Positions 3,048-61,238 of a stretch of DNA of 64,000 nucleotides are shown one piece after another. Within the stretch, counting starts at the first letter, position 1; every line of letters starts with the position of its first letter. Where the stretch lies: assembly GCA_964639945.1 (NCBI GenBank), contig CAZXHY010000001.1, positions 9,527-73,526 on the forward strand, given 5' to 3'. The notes under the pieces were generated by a model. It was not told the origin of the DNA. It was given only the letters and a program-made list of their open reading frames with translations, and ran no database searches. The translations under genes and the position numbers were made by a program. The DNA comes from an uncultured Gammaproteobacteria bacterium (GTDB taxonomy: Bacteria; Patescibacteriota; Microgenomatia; UBA10105; UBA927).

Positions 3048-3808
3048 ATATGCTTAGGGGGCCATGGGAAAAAGACACTTGTTCGTTTTTTATATGCATC
3101 AAATTCTGGGCGTCCTATATATTTTTTTTCTAGTAGTGGCACGCCTGAAACAAAGAGTATCAGCCAAGTAATTGTAAGAGGGCCAATAATTGTCAAAACG
3201 CCATCAGGGAGTCCGAGGGCTATACCATATATACCCCACCACATCGCCACTTCTCCAAAATAATTTGGATGTCTGGTGTACTTCCATAGACCGGTTTGCA
3301 TAATTTTTCCATGATTTGTTGGGTTTTGTACAAATCGAGCAAGCTGGGCATCACCCACTACTTCAAAATAAAACCCGATAATCCATATGGCCAATCCGAT
3401 AAAATCCTGAGTGTGTAGAGGGTAGGCGAGTGTGAGATTTATATACACAGCGGGAAGTGCGATGAGGTAGAGGAATGCTCCTTGGAGCATAAATATTTGC
3501 ACAAAACTTCGGAGATACACATGTTTCCACTCTTTTCGCCAAGTCGCATAGCGTGAATCCTCAGGTTTATCTTTGTTACGGCGATATATGTGTCGTGCAA
3601 GACGATATCCCCATAGGGATATCGCAATATTTACCACAAAAGCTCGAGTCGAATGTTCTCCGAAAAGATAGCTAGTCCAACAAAGTAGCGGAAAACCAAG
3701 TCCCCACGCAATGTCTGCTACATCGTTTCGTTTTTTGATGATTGCGACACGAAACCATATACACATGTAGAGAAACAAGATTATTGCAAAAATTCCGTAT
3801 GGATTCAT
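3044..3808 (-). CDS. DUF1295 family membrane protein (ICMT / steroid 5-alpha-reductase-like methyltransferase fold)
   Basis: 254 aa, multiple TM segments. C-terminal '[16 protein letters not shown]' motif characteristic of DUF1295/ICMT-like proteins. Confidence 0.7.
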
Positions 3809-4203
3809 AACCCTAGGCGACGTGCTATAAAAAAACTAACTGTCGAAACACATGTAGCAAGCACTGTTCCCCAGATGAGATCGACGATCGTTACTAAAAG
3901 CGGCCAATTGGCGACAGTGGCAAGATTGGTCAGGTCGTAGGTAGCGTATGTAATAAGTCCAAAGAGTGCTCCGTAGAGCACGGCGTGGTTCCATGATTGA
4001 AGTTTTAACGCAGGTTCAATCACAAACACAACAAGTCCCACGATAAAAAGGAGATAAAAAATTATCGCAGCAGCCCAGTTTACATTTGGTGTCATGAGGA
4101 ATCCTATTTGTTTTTGATAGAAGTTTTTGGCTATCAAACCAAGCCAGAGCATATCGATAATAAAAAACACAGGTAATGCGATAGCGTAGAGTTTTAGGAA
4201 CAT
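3805..4203 (-). CDS. Small integral membrane protein, DUF2177-like
   Basis: The ORF track gives 3805..4260, but the start was moved to the internal Met ([14 protein letters not shown]...) so it abuts the TspO stop at 4206. Four predicted TM helices. 4-nt overlap with the downstream gene. Confidence 0.5.
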
Positions 4204-4205
4204 AA

Positions 4206-4604
4206 TTAGAGATTTAGCAGCGTAATGTTTATCTGTAAAATTGTAGCAAATGACACCCAAAGTCCATAGGGAATGTTGGCATAGACGATGCGTTTATCGT
4301 ATCGCCAGATTGCGTTTGCTGCCCACACTTGAGTCATCAAAACCAATAAAATATCTGCGCATGCCCATAGGTTATTTCTGAGAGTGAATTGGATGGGAGA
4401 AAAAGCGAAATTGAAAATGAGGTTGAGAATAAATGGTGTGGCGACTGCTCGTGGAAGCTCCCCTTTTGCTACACGATAAAAAACATATCCAAAAGTGATT
4501 GCTATGATTACGTAAAGCAATGACCACACAGGGCCAAATAGCCAATTTGGGGGCGCCCATGAGGGTTTGATAAGGAGTGAGTACCAAGAGTAGGCATTAT
4601 TCAT
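4206..4604 (-). CDS. tspO: TspO/MBR family tryptophan-rich sensory protein
   Basis: 'LIKPSWAPPNWLFGPVWSLLY' is the canonical TspO signature. 132 aa with five TM segments. Confidence 0.85.
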   Translation of the reverse strand: MNNAYSWYSLLIKPSWAPPNWLFGPVWSLLYVIIAITFGYVFYRVAKGELPRAVATPFILNLIFNFAFSPIQFTLRNNLWACADILLVLMTQVWAANAIWRYDKRIVYANIPYGLWVSFATILQINITLLNL

Positions 4605-4681
4605 AATAATTTAACTGTAGTTTATAGCGGGTATGCTGCACAAGCACATAAGTCTTTTATGATAGAAAAACGCGCAATGGG

Positions 4682-5401
4682 TTATTTAAGAAAGCTAAAT
4701 GTGGAAAGTGTAGTTTTTCCGACCTCGAAAGACTTACTTCCGCGGGTTTGATTAAATTGATCAAAAAGGTATATTTTCCCTTTGTGACTGATCACCGAAA
4801 TGGTGCTTTCCCCGCGCTGGGCGGAGTTTACGGTGCCTGAGGCGACTATACCCGCCTCTCCTCCGATGAGAGTAGTAGATAGCGTGAATTTGGGTAAATC
4901 TAAAGACGCTGGCTGCGGTTGTGATGCGTCATAAAAATCTTTCACTAATTGGTTGTATTTTTCGACACCTTCCGTTTTCCACCAATCGGCTGCAGTTTTC
5001 TGTGATGGATATACATAGAGGGTGAATAGTATAGAGTCACTATTTGGGATACCCACGGAATACTCGCGTGTAGTTTTTAGTGCGGTGGTATCTTTTACTG
5101 TGTCAAATACTTCATAGGTGTCTGGTTGGTATTGGAAAGAAAAATCCTCTGTCGCGTAGTACTTCCATCCAGGAATCTGTGCCGTTTGAGCCGTTATCTC
5201 GGCTGGTGTCGGGGTGGGCACTATCGGGCCAGATGAATCGACCATGAGCTTTAGAGAAAGGAGATCGTGGGAGAGTTTGGTGTTTTGATTCAGAAGATAA
5301 GCTACGGTACTTCCAAGTCCAATCGTTATGACAAAAATAATCCAAAAGAGTATTTGAAAGATGTGAGATGAGCTACTGTCACTTTGAAGATCTTCTTCCA
5401 T
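4682..5401 (-). CDS. Hypothetical membrane-anchored/secreted protein
   Basis: 239 aa. N-terminal TM helix (IFQILFWIIFVITIGLGSTVAYLL) followed by a soluble domain. A TACAAT -10 element sits 6 nt upstream of the ATG, suggesting a leaderless transcript. No recognised domain. Confidence 0.5.
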   Translation of the reverse strand: MEEDLQSDSSSSHIFQILFWIIFVITIGLGSTVAYLLNQNTKLSHDLLSLKLMVDSSGPIVPTPTPAEITAQTAQIPGWKYYATEDFSFQYQPDTYEVFDTVKDTTALKTTREYSVGIPNSDSILFTLYVYPSQKTAADWWKTEGVEKYNQLVKDFYDASQPQPASLDLPKFTLSTTLIGGEAGIVASGTVNSAQRGESTISVISHKGKIYLFDQFNQTRGSKSFEVGKTTLSTFSFLK

Positions 5402-5420
5402 GCAACAATTGTAGCATATG

Positions 5421-5444
5421 TTTTTATGAGCGGGATAAGGGAAT
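5421..5444 (-). repeat. 24-nt direct repeat of the tRNA-Gly 3' end (mid T-loop through discriminator plus 9 nt)
   Basis: 'tttttatgagcgggataagggaat' is identical at 5421-5444 and 5622-5645. Degenerate similarity continues a few nt beyond. Confidence 0.8.
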
Positions 5445-5627
5445 AAGAGCTTGCTCGTATTTTTAGAATAACTTCGTTATACATCTAAAAATACTGTGCT
5501 TCCTCCTTATAACTTCCACAATAGTGATCCTTCGTTTTCACTATTGTGGGTTAGCGAACCCAAGAGTGTTGCACCCGCAATTCATTCATATAAAGATAAC
5601 GCGAGCTTCGCTCACATTATTTTTTTA

Positions 5628-5700
5628 TGAGCGGGATAAGGGAATCGAACCCTCTTCTCATCCTTGGGAAGGATGCATACTACCACTGTACTAATCCCGC
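5628..5700 (-). tRNA. tRNA-Gly (anticodon CCC)
   Basis: Reverse complement is GCGGGATTAGTACAGTGGTAGTATGCATCCTTCCCAAGGATGAGAAGAGGGTTCGATTCCCTTATCCCGCTCA. Cloverleaf foldable by hand. Anticodon loop is TTCCCAA and the T-loop is TTCGATT. Confidence 0.85.
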
Positions 5701-5763
5701 AAAAGAACCACATCTCATATTAGCATGAGTGTATGATGTCAGCCAATTTGGGTTTACCAAATA

Positions 5764-6312
5764 CTATGGCAACTGCAACACGTTTCCAGCATGAATAGTG
5801 TTGGGATTCGTCAAATTATTTTTCTTTGCAATCTCCTCCCAACGGAATCCAGTACCGTACACATCTGCTGATATGGTCCACAATGTTTCGCCGTGTTTGA
5901 CAGTGTATTTGCCATCTGTTGGCATTTTCACCTCGACACTGTTGGACAGTGTTTGTCCTTCGGGTCGTTTTGGAACATTTGGAACAGTAAGTTTTTGTCC
6001 AACCTCAATCAGGTTGGCATCAGTCAGAGTATTTGCTGTTGCTATATCTACCCAGTTGTAACCACTGCCAAAATATTTTTGTGCAATGCTCCACAAAGAG
6101 TCTCCTGCCGTAACTGTGTAAGTGGCGGGAAGTGACATATTTGTTTCACTTTTTTGCTGTTCTTTTTTTGTTTCAGATTTAGCGGTGTCTGCTTTCTTTT
6201 CTTGAATATAGTTAAAGATAAGGACACCCGTAACTATAACCACCGCAACGCCTAAAAATAATGACACGAGAGAATCTGGGTTTTTGAGTTGTTTTGTAAC
6301 GTCTTCAATCAT
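5764..6312 (-). CDS. LysM domain-containing protein (two LysM repeats), membrane-anchored
   Basis: Two LysM motifs (YTVTAGDSLWSIAQKY...; YTVKHGETLWTISADVYG...). Start placed at the internal ATG (MIEDV...), which is preceded by GGAGGA 9 nt upstream; the ORF track starts at 6375. Confidence 0.8.
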   Translation of the reverse strand: MIEDVTKQLKNPDSLVSLFLGVAVVIVTGVLIFNYIQEKKADTAKSETKKEQQKSETNMSLPATYTVTAGDSLWSIAQKYFGSGYNWVDIATANTLTDANLIEVGQKLTVPNVPKRPEGQTLSNSVEVKMPTDGKYTVKHGETLWTISADVYGTGFRWEEIAKKNNLTNPNTIHAGNVLQLP

Positions 6313-6414
6313 CTTGTTTGTTTCCTCCGTTCTAGGCAGTGATAGTGGGGCAGGTGTGGCATTCATGCAACGCATGAATACAAGAACTCTTTATTTGATA
6401 TAAAGATTCTAGTG

Positions 6415-6489
6415 CGGGACCGAAGGGACTCGAACCCTCGACCTCCTCCTTGACAGGGAGGCGCTCTAACCAGGCTGAGCTACGATCCC
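6415..6489 (-). tRNA. tRNA-Asp (anticodon GTC)
   Basis: Reverse complement is GGGATCGTAGCTCAGCCTGGTTAGAGCGCCTCCCTGTCAAGGAGGAGGTCGAGGGTTCGAGTCCCTTCGGTCCCGC. Anticodon loop is CTGTCAA. Confidence 0.85.
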
Positions 6490-6577
6490 AAAATGTCGGG
6501 TCAAATACCAAATGATTATAATAGAAAATTGAGCTCATAACAATGGTGTGTTAGCATGGGAGAAGAAAATAACTATT

Positions 6578-8353
6578 ATGACGAATTTAGAAATTGCAGA
6601 ACTTCTTCGAAAAGTTGCGGCAGCGTATCAGATACTGAACGAAAATCGATTTCGAGTCATAGCTTACCAGCGAGCAGCGGATAGTGTGGAACATTTGACG
6701 AGCGAGCTTAAAGACTACTGGGATGACAACAAATTGGATGAGGTGTCTGGGGTGGGATCTACGATAGCTGAACATCTAGATGAGTTATTTAAGACTGGAA
6801 AGTCCACTCATTGGGAAAGTGTGTTTGCAAAAGTCCCACAGGGCGTGTTTCCTTTGCTTTTGGTTCCGGGGATTGGCCCCAAAAAAGCTTATGCACTCGT
6901 TACTGAGTTGAAGCTCGGCGGCGAAAAGACAGTAATATCAGATTTAGAGCAAGCGGCAAAAGCGGGTAAAATAGCCACAATGGAAGGATTTGGGGAGAAA
7001 TCCCAGACCGTGATACTGGAGGCTATAGAGATATATAAACGTGGGCAGATAAAAGAAAATCGCATGCCTCTGCCAGCCGCAGATGCCATAGCACGCGAAA
7101 TTATCGAATATTTGAAGGCAGGGGGTCACGTTGATCGAGCAGATGTGCTAGGAAGCCTACGACGTAGCGTATCAACGATTGGAGATATCGACATAGCGGT
7201 AGCTACAAGTAAACCAGAGCTCGTTTTGGATCACTTCGTCTTGTTCCCTCATCAGAAACTTGTGGATCATGGCGCAAGTGGCGCTACGCTTCTTTTGCAC
7301 AACGGTCGACAGGTGGATTTGCGTGTCCAAAACCTTTCGTCATACGGTGCGATGCTTCAATACTTCACTGGAAGCAAAAATCATAATGTTCGGCTTCGGG
7401 AGTTGGCACTTCGAAAAGGAATTTCGCTTTCTGAGCATGGAATTAAAGATGTAAAGACGGGCAAAATACGTTTGTATGAGACCGAAGAATCATTTTACAA
7501 AGCTGTTGGGTTACCGTGGATACCTCCAGAGCTTCGGGAGGACAAAGGAGAGATAGATGCAGCCAAAGAAGGAGAACTGCCAAAGCTTGTTGAGCTGTCC
7601 GACATAAAAGGCGATTTGCATATGCATACAAATTACGATTTGTCGTCATCTCATGATGTGGGAAAAAATCCGCTTGGGGATCATCTGGATAAGGCAAAAG
7701 AATTAGGCTACGACTACATAGGGATAAGCGATCATAACCCAAGTTTGTCCAATCATACTGAAAAAGACATTGTGTCCATCATGAAGCGCCGTAAGGATGA
7801 TTATGAACAATTATATACCTCGTGGCAGAAACGTGAAAAGGATCGAGTACAATATTTCCTCATGTGTGAGGTAGATATTCTAACAGACGGGAAATTAGCA
7901 TTGCCGGAATCTGCATTTGAATACGTCGACGCAGTCGTAGTTTCTTTGCATTCTGGTTTTACCCAAAGCCGTGCGGTGGTGACTGATCGAATTATCAGGG
8001 CGCTGACGAGCCACCCAAAAGTGCGAATATTCGGTCACCCGACTGGTAGACTACTTGGGAGTCGAGAAGGTGCAGATGCAGATTGGCAAGCTGTGCTTGC
8101 GGTTGCTAAAGAAAAAGATATAGCTATGGAGATAAATTCTTATCCAGATAGGCTAGACTTTCCTGACCCCTTGGTATATGACGCGATTAAACATGGAGTG
8201 CGATTTACTATAGACACAGACGCGCATGCTGTAGAGCACATGGACCTGATGCGATACGGTGTATCCGTGGCGCGACGTGGGTGGGCGACAAAACGTGACA
8301 TTATCAATACACTTGGGTATAATGATTTTAAGTCTTGGTTGATAAAAAAATAA
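6578..8353 (+). CDS. polX: DNA polymerase X family protein (Pol beta-like polymerase with C-terminal PHP phosphoesterase domain)
   Basis: N-terminal HhH region (NLEIAELLRKVAAAYQILNENRFRVIAYQRAADS). Central nucleotidyltransferase region (GSLRRSVSTIGDIDIAV). C-terminal PHP with HMHTNYD...SDHNP...H motifs. ATG at 6578 preferred over the GTG at 6548 in the ORF track. Confidence 0.85.
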   Translation: MTNLEIAELLRKVAAAYQILNENRFRVIAYQRAADSVEHLTSELKDYWDDNKLDEVSGVGSTIAEHLDELFKTGKSTHWESVFAKVPQGVFPLLLVPGIGPKKAYALVTELKLGGEKTVISDLEQAAKAGKIATMEGFGEKSQTVILEAIEIYKRGQIKENRMPLPAADAIAREIIEYLKAGGHVDRADVLGSLRRSVSTIGDIDIAVATSKPELVLDHFVLFPHQKLVDHGASGATLLLHNGRQVDLRVQNLSSYGAMLQYFTGSKNHNVRLRELALRKGISLSEHGIKDVKTGKIRLYETEESFYKAVGLPWIPPELREDKGEIDAAKEGELPKLVELSDIKGDLHMHTNYDLSSSHDVGKNPLGDHLDKAKELGYDYIGISDHNPSLSNHTEKDIVSIMKRRKDDYEQLYTSWQKREKDRVQYFLMCEVDILTDGKLALPESAFEYVDAVVVSLHSGFTQSRAVVTDRIIRALTSHPKVRIFGHPTGRLLGSREGADADWQAVLAVAKEKDIAMEINSYPDRLDFPDPLVYDAIKHGVRFTIDTDAHAVEHMDLMRYGVSVARRGWATKRDIINTLGYNDFKSWLIKK

Positions 8354-11752: not shown

Positions 11753-12510
11753 AACAAGTATTACGCATAGCGTGGCTCTATCCTGATCTTATGAGTACCT
11801 ACGGAGATCGTGGAAATGTTATCGTGCTCCAAAAAAGGTGTCAGTGGCGTGGGATAGAAGCCGAAATTGTTCCCGTGACGCTTGAGACTGATACAAAAAA
11901 ACTGAAAGAAAGCGATATAGTGTTTATGGGGGGTGCTCAAGATAGGCAACAAAAACTCGCTGGATCTGATTTCCTGAATCGCAAAGGACCTGTCGTGAAA
12001 ATCATGGTGGAGGGCGGCGTACCAGCGTTGTTTGTATGTGCAGCGTATCAGTTTGTTGGGAATTATTATAAACCGTATCAAGGCGAAAACATCGTTGGTG
12101 CTGGGATTTTTGATCTCTACACAGAACACTTAGGTGATCACGCAAAGCGCCTAATTGGGAATGTGGTTGCAGAAATTATCGATCCATACGAATTACGTGG
12201 ACAGAAGATCGTAGGTTTTGAAAATCATGGAGGATACACTCATTTAGGCACCAAAATGAAGCCATTTGCAAAAGTTGTAATAGGTGGCGGAAACAATGGT
12301 AGCGATGGATACGAGGGTGCCACATATAAGAATGCTATCGGTAGTTATTTTCATGGCCCACTGTTACCAAAAAATCCACATATAGCAGATTGGCTCATCC
12401 AAAAAGCTATAGAAAAAAAATATGGGAAGAGCGATATGCTCAAGCCTATTGATGATGCGCTGGCGCAAAACGCCCAACAGGCTGTAGCTAAGCGACTTGG
12501 GATTATATGA
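11749..12510 (+). CDS. gatD: Lipid II isoglutaminyl synthase glutaminase subunit GatD (CobB/CobQ-like glutamine amidotransferase)
   Basis: Type-1 GATase-like sequence (MKQVLRIAWLYPDLMSTYGDRGN...FVCAAYQF...). Translationally coupled to murT. Confidence 0.8.
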   Translation: MKQVLRIAWLYPDLMSTYGDRGNVIVLQKRCQWRGIEAEIVPVTLETDTKKLKESDIVFMGGAQDRQQKLAGSDFLNRKGPVVKIMVEGGVPALFVCAAYQFVGNYYKPYQGENIVGAGIFDLYTEHLGDHAKRLIGNVVAEIIDPYELRGQKIVGFENHGGYTHLGTKMKPFAKVVIGGGNNGSDGYEGATYKNAIGSYFHGPLLPKNPHIADWLIQKAIEKKYGKSDMLKPIDDALAQNAQQAVAKRLGII

Positions 12511-37000: not shown

Positions 37001-37064
37001 TGAACGTTCTCTAGTTCAAGTCTCCATATTTTGCTATAATTAGCTTTAGGCTTGTCAAAAGTAA

Positions 37065-37080
37065 ATATAGGGTCGGTAGC
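37065..37080 (+). repeat. Near-copy of the tRNA-Lys 5' end (gggtcggtagc plus 4 upstream nt)
   Basis: 'atatagggtcggtagc' at 37065-37080 versus 'atattgggtcggtagc' at 37167-37182 (15/16 identical). The latter includes the first 11 nt of tRNA-Lys. Confidence 0.7.
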
Positions 37081-37171
37081 CGCTATCACGAGCAGTGCGA
37101 GTGAGAAGCACTCTCGGGGTGTCAATGTGGGGAAAACTCTGTTATAGAAAGTCTGCAGAAAATTTAATATT

Positions 37172-37243
37172 GGGTCGGTAGCTCAATGGTAGAGCAGTAG
37201 CCTTTTAAGCTATTGGTTCAGGGTTCGAGCCCCTGCCGACTCA
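37172..37243 (+). tRNA. tRNA-Lys (anticodon TTT)
   Basis: GGGTCGGTAGCTCAATGGTAGAGCAGTAGCCTTTTAAGCTATTGGTTCAGGGTTCGAGCCCCTGCCGACTCA. Anticodon loop is CTTTTAA. Confidence 0.85.
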
Positions 37244-37247
37244 CTAG

Positions 37248-37338: not shown

Positions 37339-37355
37339 AGCCCCTGCCGACTCAC
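37339..37355 (+). repeat. 17-nt direct repeat of the tRNA-Lys 3' end
   Basis: 'agcccctgccgactcac' at 37228-37244 (T-loop 3' part to discriminator plus 1) is repeated exactly at 37339-37355. Confidence 0.8.
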
Positions 37356-59109: not shown

Positions 59110-59673
59110 ATGTTAAAGACTGCCCTTGTTGCGACAATATTGTTTATCGGCTCCCTCACACAACCGATCGTCTCACGGACAACGGATACACTCCGAACCA
59201 TGACGACCTCTCAAGGGAAAGTTCGACCGACACCTAAACCACCACGTAAGCCTACTCTTACTCCAACTCCAACACAGATACCTACGCCTACCGTGACACC
59301 GACTCCTACGCCACAGTCCACAGCCACTCCAACACCCACACAGACACCTACACCTACCGCGACACCTACACCAACGCCATCTGTCGGCATCACTTCCGTC
59401 ACAGTACGTTTTTGTAGTGAGAATTCAAGTTGCAATGGTTGGCTCACGATAGTTGATGTAAACGGGTACGGGTTCGCTACAGATTCCCGAGTAACTCTAA
59501 AGATAAGCGGGGTAGAGTCCTACTATAGCGGATCTTATACGGGAGGGAATGGCAGCACACGAATACTTACAGATTTTTATTTTCTTCCTCACTGCACTTA
59601 TTTTGATGTGAAAGTGGCGGGATCTTCAGGGATTGTGACTTCGGCCGCTCAGATCGCCTCAGTTTGTCCGTAA
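59110..59673 (+). CDS. Secreted/anchored protein with Pro/Thr-rich linker and C-terminal Cys-Pro
   Basis: N-terminal signal/TM. (TPTP)n linker of about 60 aa. C-terminal domain ends ...SVCP. Same architecture as 44538..45122. Confidence 0.55.
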   Translation: MLKTALVATILFIGSLTQPIVSRTTDTLRTMTTSQGKVRPTPKPPRKPTLTPTPTQIPTPTVTPTPTPQSTATPTPTQTPTPTATPTPTPSVGITSVTVRFCSENSSCNGWLTIVDVNGYGFATDSRVTLKISGVESYYSGSYTGGNGSTRILTDFYFLPHCTYFDVKVAGSSGIVTSAAQIASVCP

Positions 59674-59674
59674 C

Positions 59675-59699
59675 CGCCATTAAGGCGGATTCTTTTGCT
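59675..59699 (+). terminator. Rho-independent terminator
   Basis: ccgcc-attaa-ggcgg followed by 'attcttttgc', starting 2 nt after the stop codon. Confidence 0.65.
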
Positions 59700-59838
59700 T
59701 GTATAGGTGTTGGGATGAGATTGGAAAGAAATTAAACAAAAATCTTTGAATTCAATCCAATTGAAATATCATTATAAGATTTTTGAAACCATCTACAGAG
59801 CAAAACCTATTTTTTGCAAATTACATTTAAATGTTCAT

Positions 59839-60090
59839 TTAGCGAACCGAAGAGTAAAGTATGATCAATCCAATTATAAGAATTAATGCACCGAACATAT
59901 GAATAAAACTTGCTATAACAGGAGTGATTGGTTTATTTCTAGATAACAAATTTCCGATTGATGGATACGATCTAGACCATATTCTGTATCGCTCCATCAT
60001 ATCGCGGGGAATAAAAATAAAGAAAGTGCCAATAGCAATATATATTATCGAAAATACTGTATTGTCCATGAATGAATTATACTCCTTCAC
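59839..60090 (-). CDS. Small integral membrane protein (83 aa)
   Basis: GGTGAAGGAG lies 12 nt upstream of the ATG. Two TM helices. Confidence 0.45.
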   Translation of the reverse strand: MKEYNSFMDNTVFSIIYIAIGTFFIFIPRDMMERYRIWSRSYPSIGNLLSRNKPITPVIASFIHMFGALILIIGLIILYSSVR

Positions 60091-60118
60091 CTTGAGGGTG
60101 TCATAGGATCTTTTCGTT

Positions 60119-60136
60119 TGTACCCCCAGTCGGATT
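60119..60136 (-). repeat. 18-nt direct repeat of the tRNA-Glu 3' end
   Basis: 'tgtacccccagtcggatt' at 60119-60136 equals 60363-60380 (tRNA-Glu T-loop 3' part through discriminator plus 'AC'). Flanks show a further ~17 nt of degenerate similarity. Confidence 0.8.
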
Positions 60137-60330
60137 TGGTTGGATTACCAACCACTCACCAGCAGTATAACTCTCCTTCGACAAGCTCAGGATCGTTAAC
60201 TGCTGGATTGTCTCCTTCGGATTTCCCCTACGGGGACTGATGGTTCGTAAACTCGCAAATCAGAATTTACTTGTAAACGAACCAGTCAGCGGACCGGCAA
60301 GCCGGTTTAAACCCCGATGAGATAGACACA

Positions 60331-60359
60331 AAAAATCCGCCGTTAAGGCGGACTTTTTT
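60331..60359. terminator. Bidirectional terminator hairpin adjacent to the tRNA-Glu 3' end
   Basis: aaaaaa-TCCGCC-gttaa-GGCGGA-cttttttg. Nearly the same hairpin as at 59675. Confidence 0.7.
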
Positions 60360-60363
60360 GCGT

Positions 60364-60438
60364 GTACCCCCAGTCGGATTCGAACCGGCGATTCTCTGGC
60401 TGAAAACCAGATGTCCTAGGCCGCTAGACGATGGGGGC
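60364..60438 (-). tRNA. tRNA-Glu (anticodon TTC)
   Basis: Reverse complement is GCCCCCATCGTCTAGCGGCCTAGGACATCTGGTTTTCAGCCAGAGAATCGCCGGTTCGAATCCGACTGGGGGTA. Anticodon loop is TTTTCAG. Closely resembles bacterial tRNA-Glu. It has a G1-U72 pair and one T-stem mismatch. Confidence 0.7.
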
Positions 60439-60564
60439 GGTATGTGAATTGTACCAAAAATCAGGCTACTCGTCATGATACCTAAAAAATAACGCCCAAA
60501 TCGGTATAAAACCATGCATATCATGCATAGTCTATACAGACGGGCGTTGTGATACATACTTCAT

Positions 60565-60981
60565 TCATGTGCGGTTTATGCGAATAATAAATTTTAGCAC
60601 TATGCCTAACGTTCCAGACAGTATCATAGTCAGGCAGAAATTCATAAAAAAATACCAAACAAGGCCTTCGCCGTATTCTGCGTTTTGTAAATTCGCGAGG
60701 CCGTAAAACGGGACACCGATAAGCATCACGTGCCAAAACGCTGTGTAAAAGCAGATGATCAACCACCATGAGGGGCTTTCCTCAAGTCCAAACACAGTGG
60801 CCGCAGTGAGTATGAGTATCCATGAAAGGAAATTCATGAAATCGTCATCTGCCATTTTCGTGGGTGATATCATGTATGTGGCAATCGGTGCTGCGATACT
60901 GATAATCAGTGCAGTAATTTTTAGTAATTTTTGTATAGTTTTTTCTCTTTTGTTCTGTTGTTGTTTTTTTAGAAGTTGCAT
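60565..60981 (-). CDS. Hypothetical integral membrane protein (138 aa)
   Basis: Four hydrophobic segments. Confidence 0.45.
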   Translation of the reverse strand: MQLLKKQQQNKREKTIQKLLKITALIISIAAPIATYMISPTKMADDDFMNFLSWILILTAATVFGLEESPSWWLIICFYTAFWHVMLIGVPFYGLANLQNAEYGEGLVWYFFMNFCLTMILSGTLGIVLKFIIRINRT

Positions 60982-61238
60982 AATAATCCTCTCTTTTCCG
61001 AAAATAGTGGGTGGGTTAAATAAAGCGCTTCAGCGTGTAGTAGTTTCTACACACCAAGGCGCTTTATTTACCCCAAGAGAGGTACACAATGTAGAAATAT
61101 GTAAATGTGCGATTGATTGCAGCGCTTTTCGGTTCAGCTGTAGACCCGCAGCGGTGTAATCGGTGAAAATTATACCGTAGAGAGCGGGATAAGTCGAATT
61201 TGGCTTAAGCCCTTCACAGCGTGCTGTATAATATATTC

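Follow-up and report, generated by a model that had tools for sequence, protein, structure and literature searches.

What lies between a tRNA gene and a second copy of its own 3′ end? In the 64,000-nt stretch of contig CAZXHY010000001.1 analysed here (the window), the tRNA-Glu(UUC) gene is followed by a strongly folding segment of 226 nt and then by a displaced copy of the tRNA 3′ end, and the initial annotation had proposed that the segment is either a novel small RNA (sRNA) or the remains of the phage attachment site (attP) of an integrated element. The flanking DinB-like gene placed the host in Candidatus Woesebacteria of the Candidate Phyla Radiation (CPR/Patescibacteria), the best genome match being 91% identical. 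Our analysis suggests that the segment is probably a remnant, devoid of open reading frames (ORFs), of a small mobile cassette that targets the T-arm-to-3′-end interval of CPR tRNA genes. This reading draws on the architecture of the locus, its recurrence and directionality, an association with GIY-YIG nuclease genes, the homology and covariation of a hairpin module, and one pair of alleles in relatives.

The 18-nt sequence TGTACCCCCAGTCGGATT was present in exactly two copies in the window, 60119–60136 and 60363–60380, and a pair appeared in none of 100 shuffled sequences, which bears out the repeat as first described. The approximately 17 further nucleotides of degenerate similarity reported for its flanks were recovered in part: the extension is real, but it comprises 13 nt, 8 of them matching, and lies only beyond the tRNA 3′ end, giving an extended repeat of 31 nt with 84% identity (60106–60136 versus 60350–60380). 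Inside tRNA-Glu, the identity broke off abruptly at T-loop A58, right after GGTTCG. An exact 18-nt direct repeat of a tRNA 3′ segment, starting from A58, is found on both sides of the element, as at integrase-type att sites, and the boundary of the duplication falls within the T-arm-to-3′-end interval (GGTTCRANTCC to the 3′ end) recognised by SegB, a homing endonuclease of phage T4. The view that inserted mobile DNA left remains here was supported in spirit, the repeat marking an insertion by which the 3′ end of the tRNA was duplicated.

The tRNA-Glu locus had been described as the third occurrence of the same pattern in the window, and equivalent repeats around structured segments were indeed found at tRNA-Gly and tRNA-Lys. 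Their 3′-end repeats were 28 nt (5417–5444 versus 5618–5645) and 17 nt (37228–37244 versus 37339–37355) long, respectively, and the segments behind these tRNAs were strongly structured, with z-scores of −5.0/−5.6 and −4.8, respectively. All three 3′ repeats started at T-loop G57/A58, and their interiors were just 94–226 nt long. No sequence similarity was detected among the Glu, Gly, and Lys segments beyond their own repeats; they share a common grammar with differing sequence. The tRNA-Asp of the window had no 3′-end repeat of this kind. At tRNA-Lys, the 5′ end and the promoter-like region were also duplicated 102 nt upstream (37057–37080 versus 37159–37182; AAAAGTAAATATAGGGTCGGTAGC versus AAAATTTAATATTGGGTCGGTAGC). 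The tRNA-Gly segment (5417–5645) contains a GAGC-GAA-GCTC hairpin with a T-run, a pseudo T-arm GGGTTCG, and then two long perfect hairpins, one of which has a C-GAA-G apex, after which the repeat begins at A58.

When metagenomes were scanned with a 28-mer taken from the tRNA-Glu 5′ half, 120 CPR loci were returned (related loci are given L numbers below), and the 192 tRNAs of these loci and the window were searched for recurrence of their ends within 1.5 kb. The 3′-terminal 14-mer recurred downstream at 14 of the 192 tRNAs and upstream, as the control, at none, and the 5′-terminal 13-mer recurred upstream at 20 and downstream (control) at none. The 3′ repeats began at T-loop G57/A58 in about 11 of the 14 cases. 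The duplication of tRNA ends is general and directional. The architecture of the window was reproduced in L067, where tRNA-Glu is followed by a 102-nt segment and a repeat of AATCCGGCACGGGGTAC, and L022 carried two such units with tRNA 3′ pieces in tandem.

The only gene ever found inside intact related elements is that of a mini GIY-YIG nuclease. An ORF of 85–95 aa was located between the tRNA and its 3′ repeat in L108, L114, L097, and L116/L139, the gene was also present in the related L137 and L028/L136, and the L028 and L114 proteins matched the Pfam family GIY-YIG (PF01541) with E values of about 1e-15. A GIY-YIG ORF or its remnant was enclosed in 17 cases, five of the 3′ type and 12 of the 5′ type. 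Within the tRNA-centred loci, 42 of the 47 GIY-YIG matches lay no more than 400 nt from a tRNA, all 42 on the same strand, while 14% of the bases are that near (binomial p = 2e-30). A second set of loci was fetched via the protein and hence without tRNA bias; there, six of the seven distinct GIY-YIG genes were located downstream of a tRNA on the same strand (for Glu, Leu, Tyr, or Gln), at distances of 100–250 nt. The element started exactly at the tRNA 3′ end, with the conserved leader CGCACCAGTCGGTGCATGGCTTYGCC, in the four Glu loci and in the Leu, Tyr, and Gln loci that were read. Because the 177-nt element of L038 retains the start of the GIY-YIG gene (the first ~27 codons, MYYTYMLRNYKINRYYIGYAKDL), the ORF-less copies appear to be deletion derivatives of ORF-bearing ones. 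GIY-YIG ORFs have been noted in non-intron insertions of CPR rRNA genes (PMC11270868), and our literature search turned up no account of GIY-YIG cassettes linked to tRNAs, or of duplicated tRNA ends, in CPR.

Some GIY-YIG loci had further peculiarities. In L152 (1058–1782; also in L154, L158, and L159), a single tRNA-Gln has a same-strand GIY-YIG gene on either side, one ending in the 5′ region of the tRNA and the other starting ~100 nt past its 3′ end. Two GIY-YIG genes are likewise located around tRNA-Glu in L116, where the upstream copy appears by eye to be frameshifted. Behind the tRNA-Leu-linked GIY-YIG gene of L143, a tail at 1762–1830 (AAATCCAATGTACC) resembles a tRNA-Glu-type 3′ end in degenerate form, seemingly brought along from an earlier host tRNA.

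Presence and absence of the element were observed among relatives. L023 (empty) and L038 (occupied) share a 100% identical upstream flank of 200 nt and a downstream flank of ~95 nt; tRNA-Glu abuts the flank in L023, whereas the element and a 17-nt duplication lie in between in L038. L132, with an upstream flank 99.5% identical to that of L023/L038, has a GIY-YIG ORF there instead. The tRNA-attached 3′ end of L038 (GGGAGCAC) gives a G2·G71 mismatch, and its displaced copy (GGGATCAC) is the native sequence. The tRNA 3′ pieces accompanying the elements in L137 and L018 stem from a tRNA-Glu other than the resident one, that of L018 corresponding to the acceptor end of the window tRNA (TGGGGGTAC). 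Judging from these sequences, the cassette seems to supply its own tRNA 3′ end. The window tRNA-Glu is intact and has a T-stem mismatch, C50·A64, and the pair G1·U72; it scored only 52 bits, and the Rfam alignment flags the non-canonical T-stem pair. C50·A64 is the kind of mismatch that a hybrid tRNA would be expected to show, which is a weak argument here because both window copies of the repeat have the A. The CCGAC strand of this T-stem was also observed in L022 and L028, and the matching CCGGC in L067 and L018. L023 has in addition a 3.3-kb insert with two large ORFs (3361–6860) downstream of tRNA-Glu, flanked by direct repeats of the ~95-nt downstream flank of the tRNA, a third copy of which (88%) is located at 11768.

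At tRNA genes, integrases classically leave repeats that stretch from the T-loop to the 3′ end, and this geometry would fit the relic of a tyrosine-integrase element, with the 18-mers as attL and attR and the interior as a decayed remainder resembling a cis-mobilizable element (CIME-like). L006, with a 62% identical DinB, has a syntenic tRNA-Glu with a Phage_integrase gene directly downstream (Pfam E 6e-15; L006 4232–5513) and, 54 nt upstream of the intact gene, an older tRNA-Glu of which the 5′ half (41 nt) and the ancestral promoter remain; because of this integrase and this half-tRNA remnant at the syntenic place, the tRNA-Glu site is evidently an insertion hot spot. However, tblastn with the L006 integrase found no homologue in the window, the neighbouring ORFs had no informative Pfam families, recombinases included, and the element has no recombinase gene inside or next to it, its 226-nt interior being non-coding. 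The homologous short elements of other genomes contain either GIY-YIG or no gene at all, and in no case an integrase; elements of kilobase size would have to have decayed at random to 94–226 nt between perfect repeats at three tRNAs, which is unlikely; and 5′-end duplications, which integrases do not normally make, also occur. An integrase relic is improbable because the window contains no tyrosine recombinase, its three tRNAs have interiors of such lengths, and the coding homologous elements encode a small GIY-YIG nuclease only. The earlier attP idea therefore holds as far as inserted mobile DNA is concerned, given the recurrent architecture and one empty/occupied contig pair, but the DNA is probably not an integrase attP.

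The enclosed segment folded with −88.3 kcal/mol on the plus strand (z −7.47) and −97.1 kcal/mol on the minus strand (z −7.44), and none of 200 shuffled sequences was as stable. The four helices named in the initial annotation were all present, namely CCAGCAGT (60159–60166) paired with ACTGCTGG (60199–60206), CCCCTACGGGG at 60225–60235, GGTTCGT/ACGAACC within 60241–60284, and CCGGCAAGCCGG at 60294–60305. The bidirectional terminator that it had placed beside the segment (T1) was also recovered, with a stem at 60336–60352 that has CTTTTTT after it and, for the other strand, AAAAAA before it, as in intrinsic terminators.

The distal 97 nt (60119–60215, tRNA-sense strand) constitute a conserved double-hairpin module consisting of hairpin 1, the linker UGAGU, hairpin 2, and the AAUCC of the displaced 3′ end. 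Hairpin 1 has an 8-bp base, a 3–4-bp extension, a tandem GA/GA internal loop, and a variable apex, and reads CCAGCAGT-TAAC-GA-TCCT...AGGA-GA-GTTA-ACTGCTGG in the window, where the linker is TGAGT and hairpin 2 is TGGTTGG-TAAT-CCAACCA. A covariance model, R1, was built from five copies that are among the scored loci, with L018, L028/L136, and L043 as new finds. The R1 scores of L137, the window, L067, L118, L022, and L018 were 106, 101, 99.8, 87.9, 78.6, and 41.8 bits, respectively, and L028/L136 and L043 were weaker matches with 28 and 24.5 bits, respectively. The two-hairpin architecture with compensatory changes, as in small double-hairpin or miniature inverted-repeat transposable element (MITE)-like elements, was thus found with 42–106 bits in six loci. 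Hairpin 1 was 93% paired over five sequences, with three pairs changed on both sides, whereas slid controls were 28–65% paired, and its covariation score was reached by only 2 of 500 shuffles. Hairpin 2 differs in sequence in each of seven loci and is fully paired in six; L022 has a single mispair.

The surroundings of the module connect it to tRNA ends and to the nuclease. In L137 and L018, it lies between the 5′ half of a T-arm (GGTTCA or CGCCGGTTCG) and the AATCC... of a pseudo-tRNA, exactly at 57/58. The GIY-YIG cassette of L137 directly follows the module and is flanked by two copies of the same foreign 3′ end, in L028/L136 the stop codon of GIY-YIG directly adjoins the 3′ half of the module, and a related module is located in the D-loop of a tRNA-Leu 5′ fragment in L043. 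R1 detected one module copy in the window. Between this copy and T1 lies unit 0, whose long hairpin has the arms GGTTCG...CGAACC and whose AATCCGA is a truncated copy of the tRNA 3′ piece; by its architecture and by analogy with the two tandem units of L022, it may be an older tandem module-like unit. Viral contigs gave no match to two specific module patterns; a loose pattern gave 120 chance matches there, none with the 5′ arm of the hairpin.

A stable and covarying fold would also be expected of a structured RNA with a function of its own, be it a novel sRNA or an RNA linked to the tRNA and acting in cis, for which the repeat is incidental or a part of the RNA. The folding z-scores of about −7.4, the pairing of hairpin 1, and the maintained pairing of hairpin 2 despite its differing sequences speak for it, as do the purine-rich GA/GA loop conserved on the tRNA-sense strand, the somewhat greater stability of the sense folds (7 of 9 units), and L067, where no terminator separates the tRNA from the module. 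However, Rfam 15 families other than tRNA gave no match at gathering scores or at E values up to 10 in the window and eight related loci, the best non-tRNA match, confined to the terminator, reaching 24.8 bits (gathering score, 51.4). Moreover, a consensus scan detected no promoter-like site on the plus strand or inside the segment; only two were found nearby, and these lay outside the segment, on the minus strand. Strong terminators separate the tRNA from the module in the window, L118, and L022; the module is patchily distributed and occurs inside pseudo-tRNAs, and the covariation comes from few, related sequences. The nearly symmetric energies, stems with only 0–2 G·U pairs per unit, and C-GAA-G triloops, which recur in the hairpins and are unusually stable as DNA mini-hairpins, fit DNA palindromes. 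A functional RNA is consequently an unlikely explanation, and the initial sRNA proposal was not sustained in view of the missing Rfam match and promoter-like site, the intervening terminator, and the module in pseudo-tRNA T-loops. The earlier rejection of a transfer-messenger RNA (tmRNA), an RNase P RNA, and a signal recognition particle RNA was upheld, with no tmRNA found by ARAGORN and tRNA alone passing in Rfam.

As for the form in which the module acts, the conserved GA/GA loop and the sense-strand stability favour a single-stranded fold in the tRNA sense, whereas the symmetric energies, scarce G·U pairs, C-GAA-G triloops, and self-paired tRNA-derived arms favour DNA palindromes; the module at 60119–60215 may have a structural role as RNA or single-stranded DNA. 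Three narrower candidates were discarded. A hammerhead reading of GATGAG...CGCAAT in L067, L118, and L022 failed on a core that misfits by eye, and a permissive Rfam scan of these three loci listed neither a hammerhead nor any other ribozyme. A retroelement or tRNA-primer origin of the 18-mer was rejected as the repeats lack CCA and run into the DNA flank, and a plus-strand sRNA ending at T1 was rejected as that strand has no promoter-like site.

The self-paired arms raise another possibility, namely that breakage, occurring repeatedly at the tRNA gene, and fold-back or template-switch repair left local scars, in the form of palindromes and partial duplications of the tRNA, in which no dedicated mobile element took part. 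Several arms consist of tRNA sequence paired with its own inverted copy, as in AACCGG..CCGGTTCG (L067), CCACGAACC..GGTTCGTGG (L137), and GGTTCG..CGAACC (window). However, the same module (79–106 bits) is found in unrelated genomes with different resident tRNAs, and foreign tRNA 3′ ends accompany it. Because the module recurs across unrelated genomes and foreign tRNA ends travel along, a defined unit appears to have moved horizontally, and local scars are quite improbable.

Several observations weigh against the interpretation of the segment as a remnant of a mobile cassette. A search of the window in six frames with a hidden Markov model of 120 homologues found no GIY-YIG gene or remnant, the Glu, Gly, and Lys segments included, and the link of the window copy to the nuclease hence rests on architecture and module homology only. 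The ~90-aa proteins are essentially the catalytic domain alone, so their site specificity is putative; characterised GIY-YIG homing enzymes carry separate DNA-binding domains. The GIY-YIG elements of L143, L150, and L152 have no clear distal repeat. A64, the T-stem mismatch, is common to both window 18-mers, so that neither has the appearance of an unaltered original. It is also conceivable that the module is a hairpin element in its own right that happens to occupy the same niche, and the loci are mosaics in which the order of events is beyond reconstruction. Finally, no empty allele of the window tRNA-Glu locus was found, all three samples being occupied (L001 and L142 like the window).

The close relatives were examined for this last point. 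Same-species contigs from other samples were 99.6–99.97% identical and carried the same arrangement or stopped inside the tRNA. L002 and L003, from two other samples, are identical upstream and end inside tRNA-Glu (window 60375 and 60411, respectively); as the assembly k-mer (k141, from the ENA contig name of L003) exceeds the 18 nt of the repeat, strain heterogeneity downstream of the tRNA is a possible cause. L005, whose DinB is 91% identical, is uninformative about the tRNA-Glu junction because synteny is lost at ~60484. The comparative analysis found 60119–60215 to be conserved and covarying, and it yielded no empty junction at the window locus from close relatives.

Under the mobile-cassette interpretation, the following mechanism can be proposed. 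The cassette would insert at T-loop position 57/58, carrying on its tRNA-proximal side a replacement for nucleotide 58 to the 3′ end (in the window, with a terminator), whereby the tRNA would stay intact and the old 3′ end would be displaced downstream as a direct repeat. In intact relatives, the 85–95-aa GIY-YIG nuclease, their one gene, would cut unoccupied tRNA genes in this interval in a SegB-like manner, and repair would copy the cassette from the occupied allele, with the tRNA body as the left homology arm and the distal tRNA 3′ piece of the cassette as the right one; the proximal copy would preserve tRNA function. Cleavage and repair are proposed because the CPR elements start at the tRNA 3′ end and duplicate exactly the interval from 57/58 to the 3′ end; the specificity of the nuclease and the homing of the CPR cassettes are suggested by analogy. 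The window copy would descend from a GIY-YIG-bearing cassette, may have lost the nuclease gene or never had it, and would keep T1, the conserved double-hairpin module, and unit 0. Of these, probably T1 alone is of consequence to the cell today.

The features of the locus are listed in Table 1.

Table 1. Features at and around the tRNA-Glu locus (window coordinates).
Feature	Position	Strand	Basis or remark
T2 terminator with TGTA (copy C, third partial copy of the Glu repeat)	59674–59703	both	87% identical to 60337–60366 (repeat family D3)
77-aa hydrophobic ORF	59839–60072	−	no Pfam family; between copy B and T2
Promoter-like site ATGACA-17-TATAAT (11/12)	60076–60104	−	consensus scan; just past copy B, before the small ORF
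Repeat copy B, distal, displaced	60119–60136	−	A58 to 3′ end plus CA; similarity runs 13 nt on, to 60106
Double-hairpin module	60137–60215	−	covariance model R1, 101 bits
Module-like unit 0: long hairpin CTGACTGGTTCG...CGAACCATCAG, CCCC-GTA-GGGG, then AATCCGA	60217–60289	−	architecture only, no model match
Small hairpin CCGG-CAAG-CCGG	60294–60305	both	between T1 and unit 0
T1, bidirectional intrinsic terminator (A-run, stem TCCGCC/GGCGGA, T-run)	60330–60360	both	directly past the tRNA 3′ end
Repeat copy A, proximal	60363–60380	−	T-loop A58 to tRNA 3′ end plus CA; belongs to the functional tRNA
tRNA-Glu(UUC), intact	60364–60438	−	ARAGORN; Rfam tRNA, 52.1 bits
Promoter-like site of tRNA-Glu, ATGACG-17-TACAAT with extended TG	60448–60476	−	consensus scan, match only
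138-aa membrane ORF	60565–60981	−	

The promoter-like site of tRNA-Glu, a consensus match with candidate function, ends 10 nt before the 5′ end of the tRNA. T2 is probably the original tRNA-Glu terminator, now common to the convergent ORF at 59110–59673, and the region of the 77-aa ORF, which is bounded by a 17-nt imperfect repeat (TACAAACGAAAAGATCC/TACAAGCAAAAGAATCC, 13/17), may tentatively be regarded as a separate small insertion into the region of that terminator. An exact look-up of the 77-aa protein found no record elsewhere. The convergent ORF has a Pro/Thr-rich tandem-repeat stretch (TPTPT...) at 59230–59379, a 48-nt repeat family, and a 29-nt inverted repeat (61012–61075, 83% complementary, 6-nt loop) is located ~30 nt before the start codon of the membrane ORF of 138 aa.

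A wider proposal, about which we are more doubtful than about the origin of the window segment and which is offered tentatively, is that CPR genomes host an undescribed family of minimal homing cassettes aimed at T-loop 57/58 and at the D-arm. These cassettes would use tRNA halves as universal homology arms, each carrying a ~90-aa GIY-YIG nuclease alone, and would decay to ORF-less double-hairpin modules that are perhaps mobilised in trans or serve as structured single-stranded recognition sites; the Glu, Gly, and Lys segments of the window would be three non-autonomous members. If this is true, CPR tRNA genes would serve again and again as insertion sites for a very compact selfish element whose spare tRNA end lets it avoid killing its target. 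It would account for the tRNA-end repeats, for mismatched stems (C50·A64 here and G2·G71 in L038) and pseudo-tRNA fragments, for CPR metagenome bins whose assemblies break at tRNA genes, and for a large number of unannotated genes of the type "GIY-YIG nuclease family protein". Enzymologists would be interested in a nuclease of ~90 aa that is specific for tRNA genes. For annotation, strongly folding tRNA-adjacent intergenic segments in these genomes should not be taken as sRNA genes unless expression or covariation supports it. The window copy itself is a non-coding relic, and its interest lies in the family to which it points.

Among known systems, integrase-mediated islands and prophages at tRNA genes resemble the window locus in their 3′ repeats that start in the T-loop, with the element's copy restoring the tRNA and the displaced copy at the far end; they differ in that no integrase is present in the window, the interior is 226 nt rather than kilobases long, 5′-end versions exist, and GIY-YIG is the only gene. 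In Allomyces atp6, a mobile GIY-YIG ORF at the 3′ end of a mitochondrial gene came with a replacement 3′ end, the old end being left as a downstream fragment, and mitochondrial double-hairpin elements and GC clusters are small mobile two-hairpin elements at such junctions. That host gene is organellar and protein-coding, unlike the tRNA genes here, and the likeness is one of analogy only. As in MITE-like derivatives, short ORF-less copies keep the ends of the gene-bearing element, L038 having a truncated GIY-YIG start; unlike MITEs, the present elements have no transposase-type terminal inverted repeats and no short target-site duplication, and the module is present in one copy in the window.

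The protein SegB is about 220 aa long and is encoded by a phage, whereas the CPR proteins of 85–95 aa, essentially the catalytic domain, are encoded in cellular genomes and the window copy has no nuclease gene. To our knowledge, no tRNA 3′-end duplication, double-hairpin modules, or ORF-less derivatives have been reported for SegB. SegB, a free-standing homing endonuclease of the GIY-YIG family, is encoded in the tRNA gene cluster of T4. Its recognition site of 27 bp is contained entirely in tRNA genes, from the motif GGTTCRANTCC at its start to a point close to the tRNA 3′ end, at which the enzyme cuts; without CCAR, the cut is more proximal (PMC2330249). In both systems, a GIY-YIG gene is located among tRNA genes, the interval of the SegB site is the interval duplicated in CPR, and the cut point near the tRNA 3′ end is where the CPR GIY-YIG elements begin. 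By this analogy, phage T4 SegB appears to be the closest precedent for the cassette.

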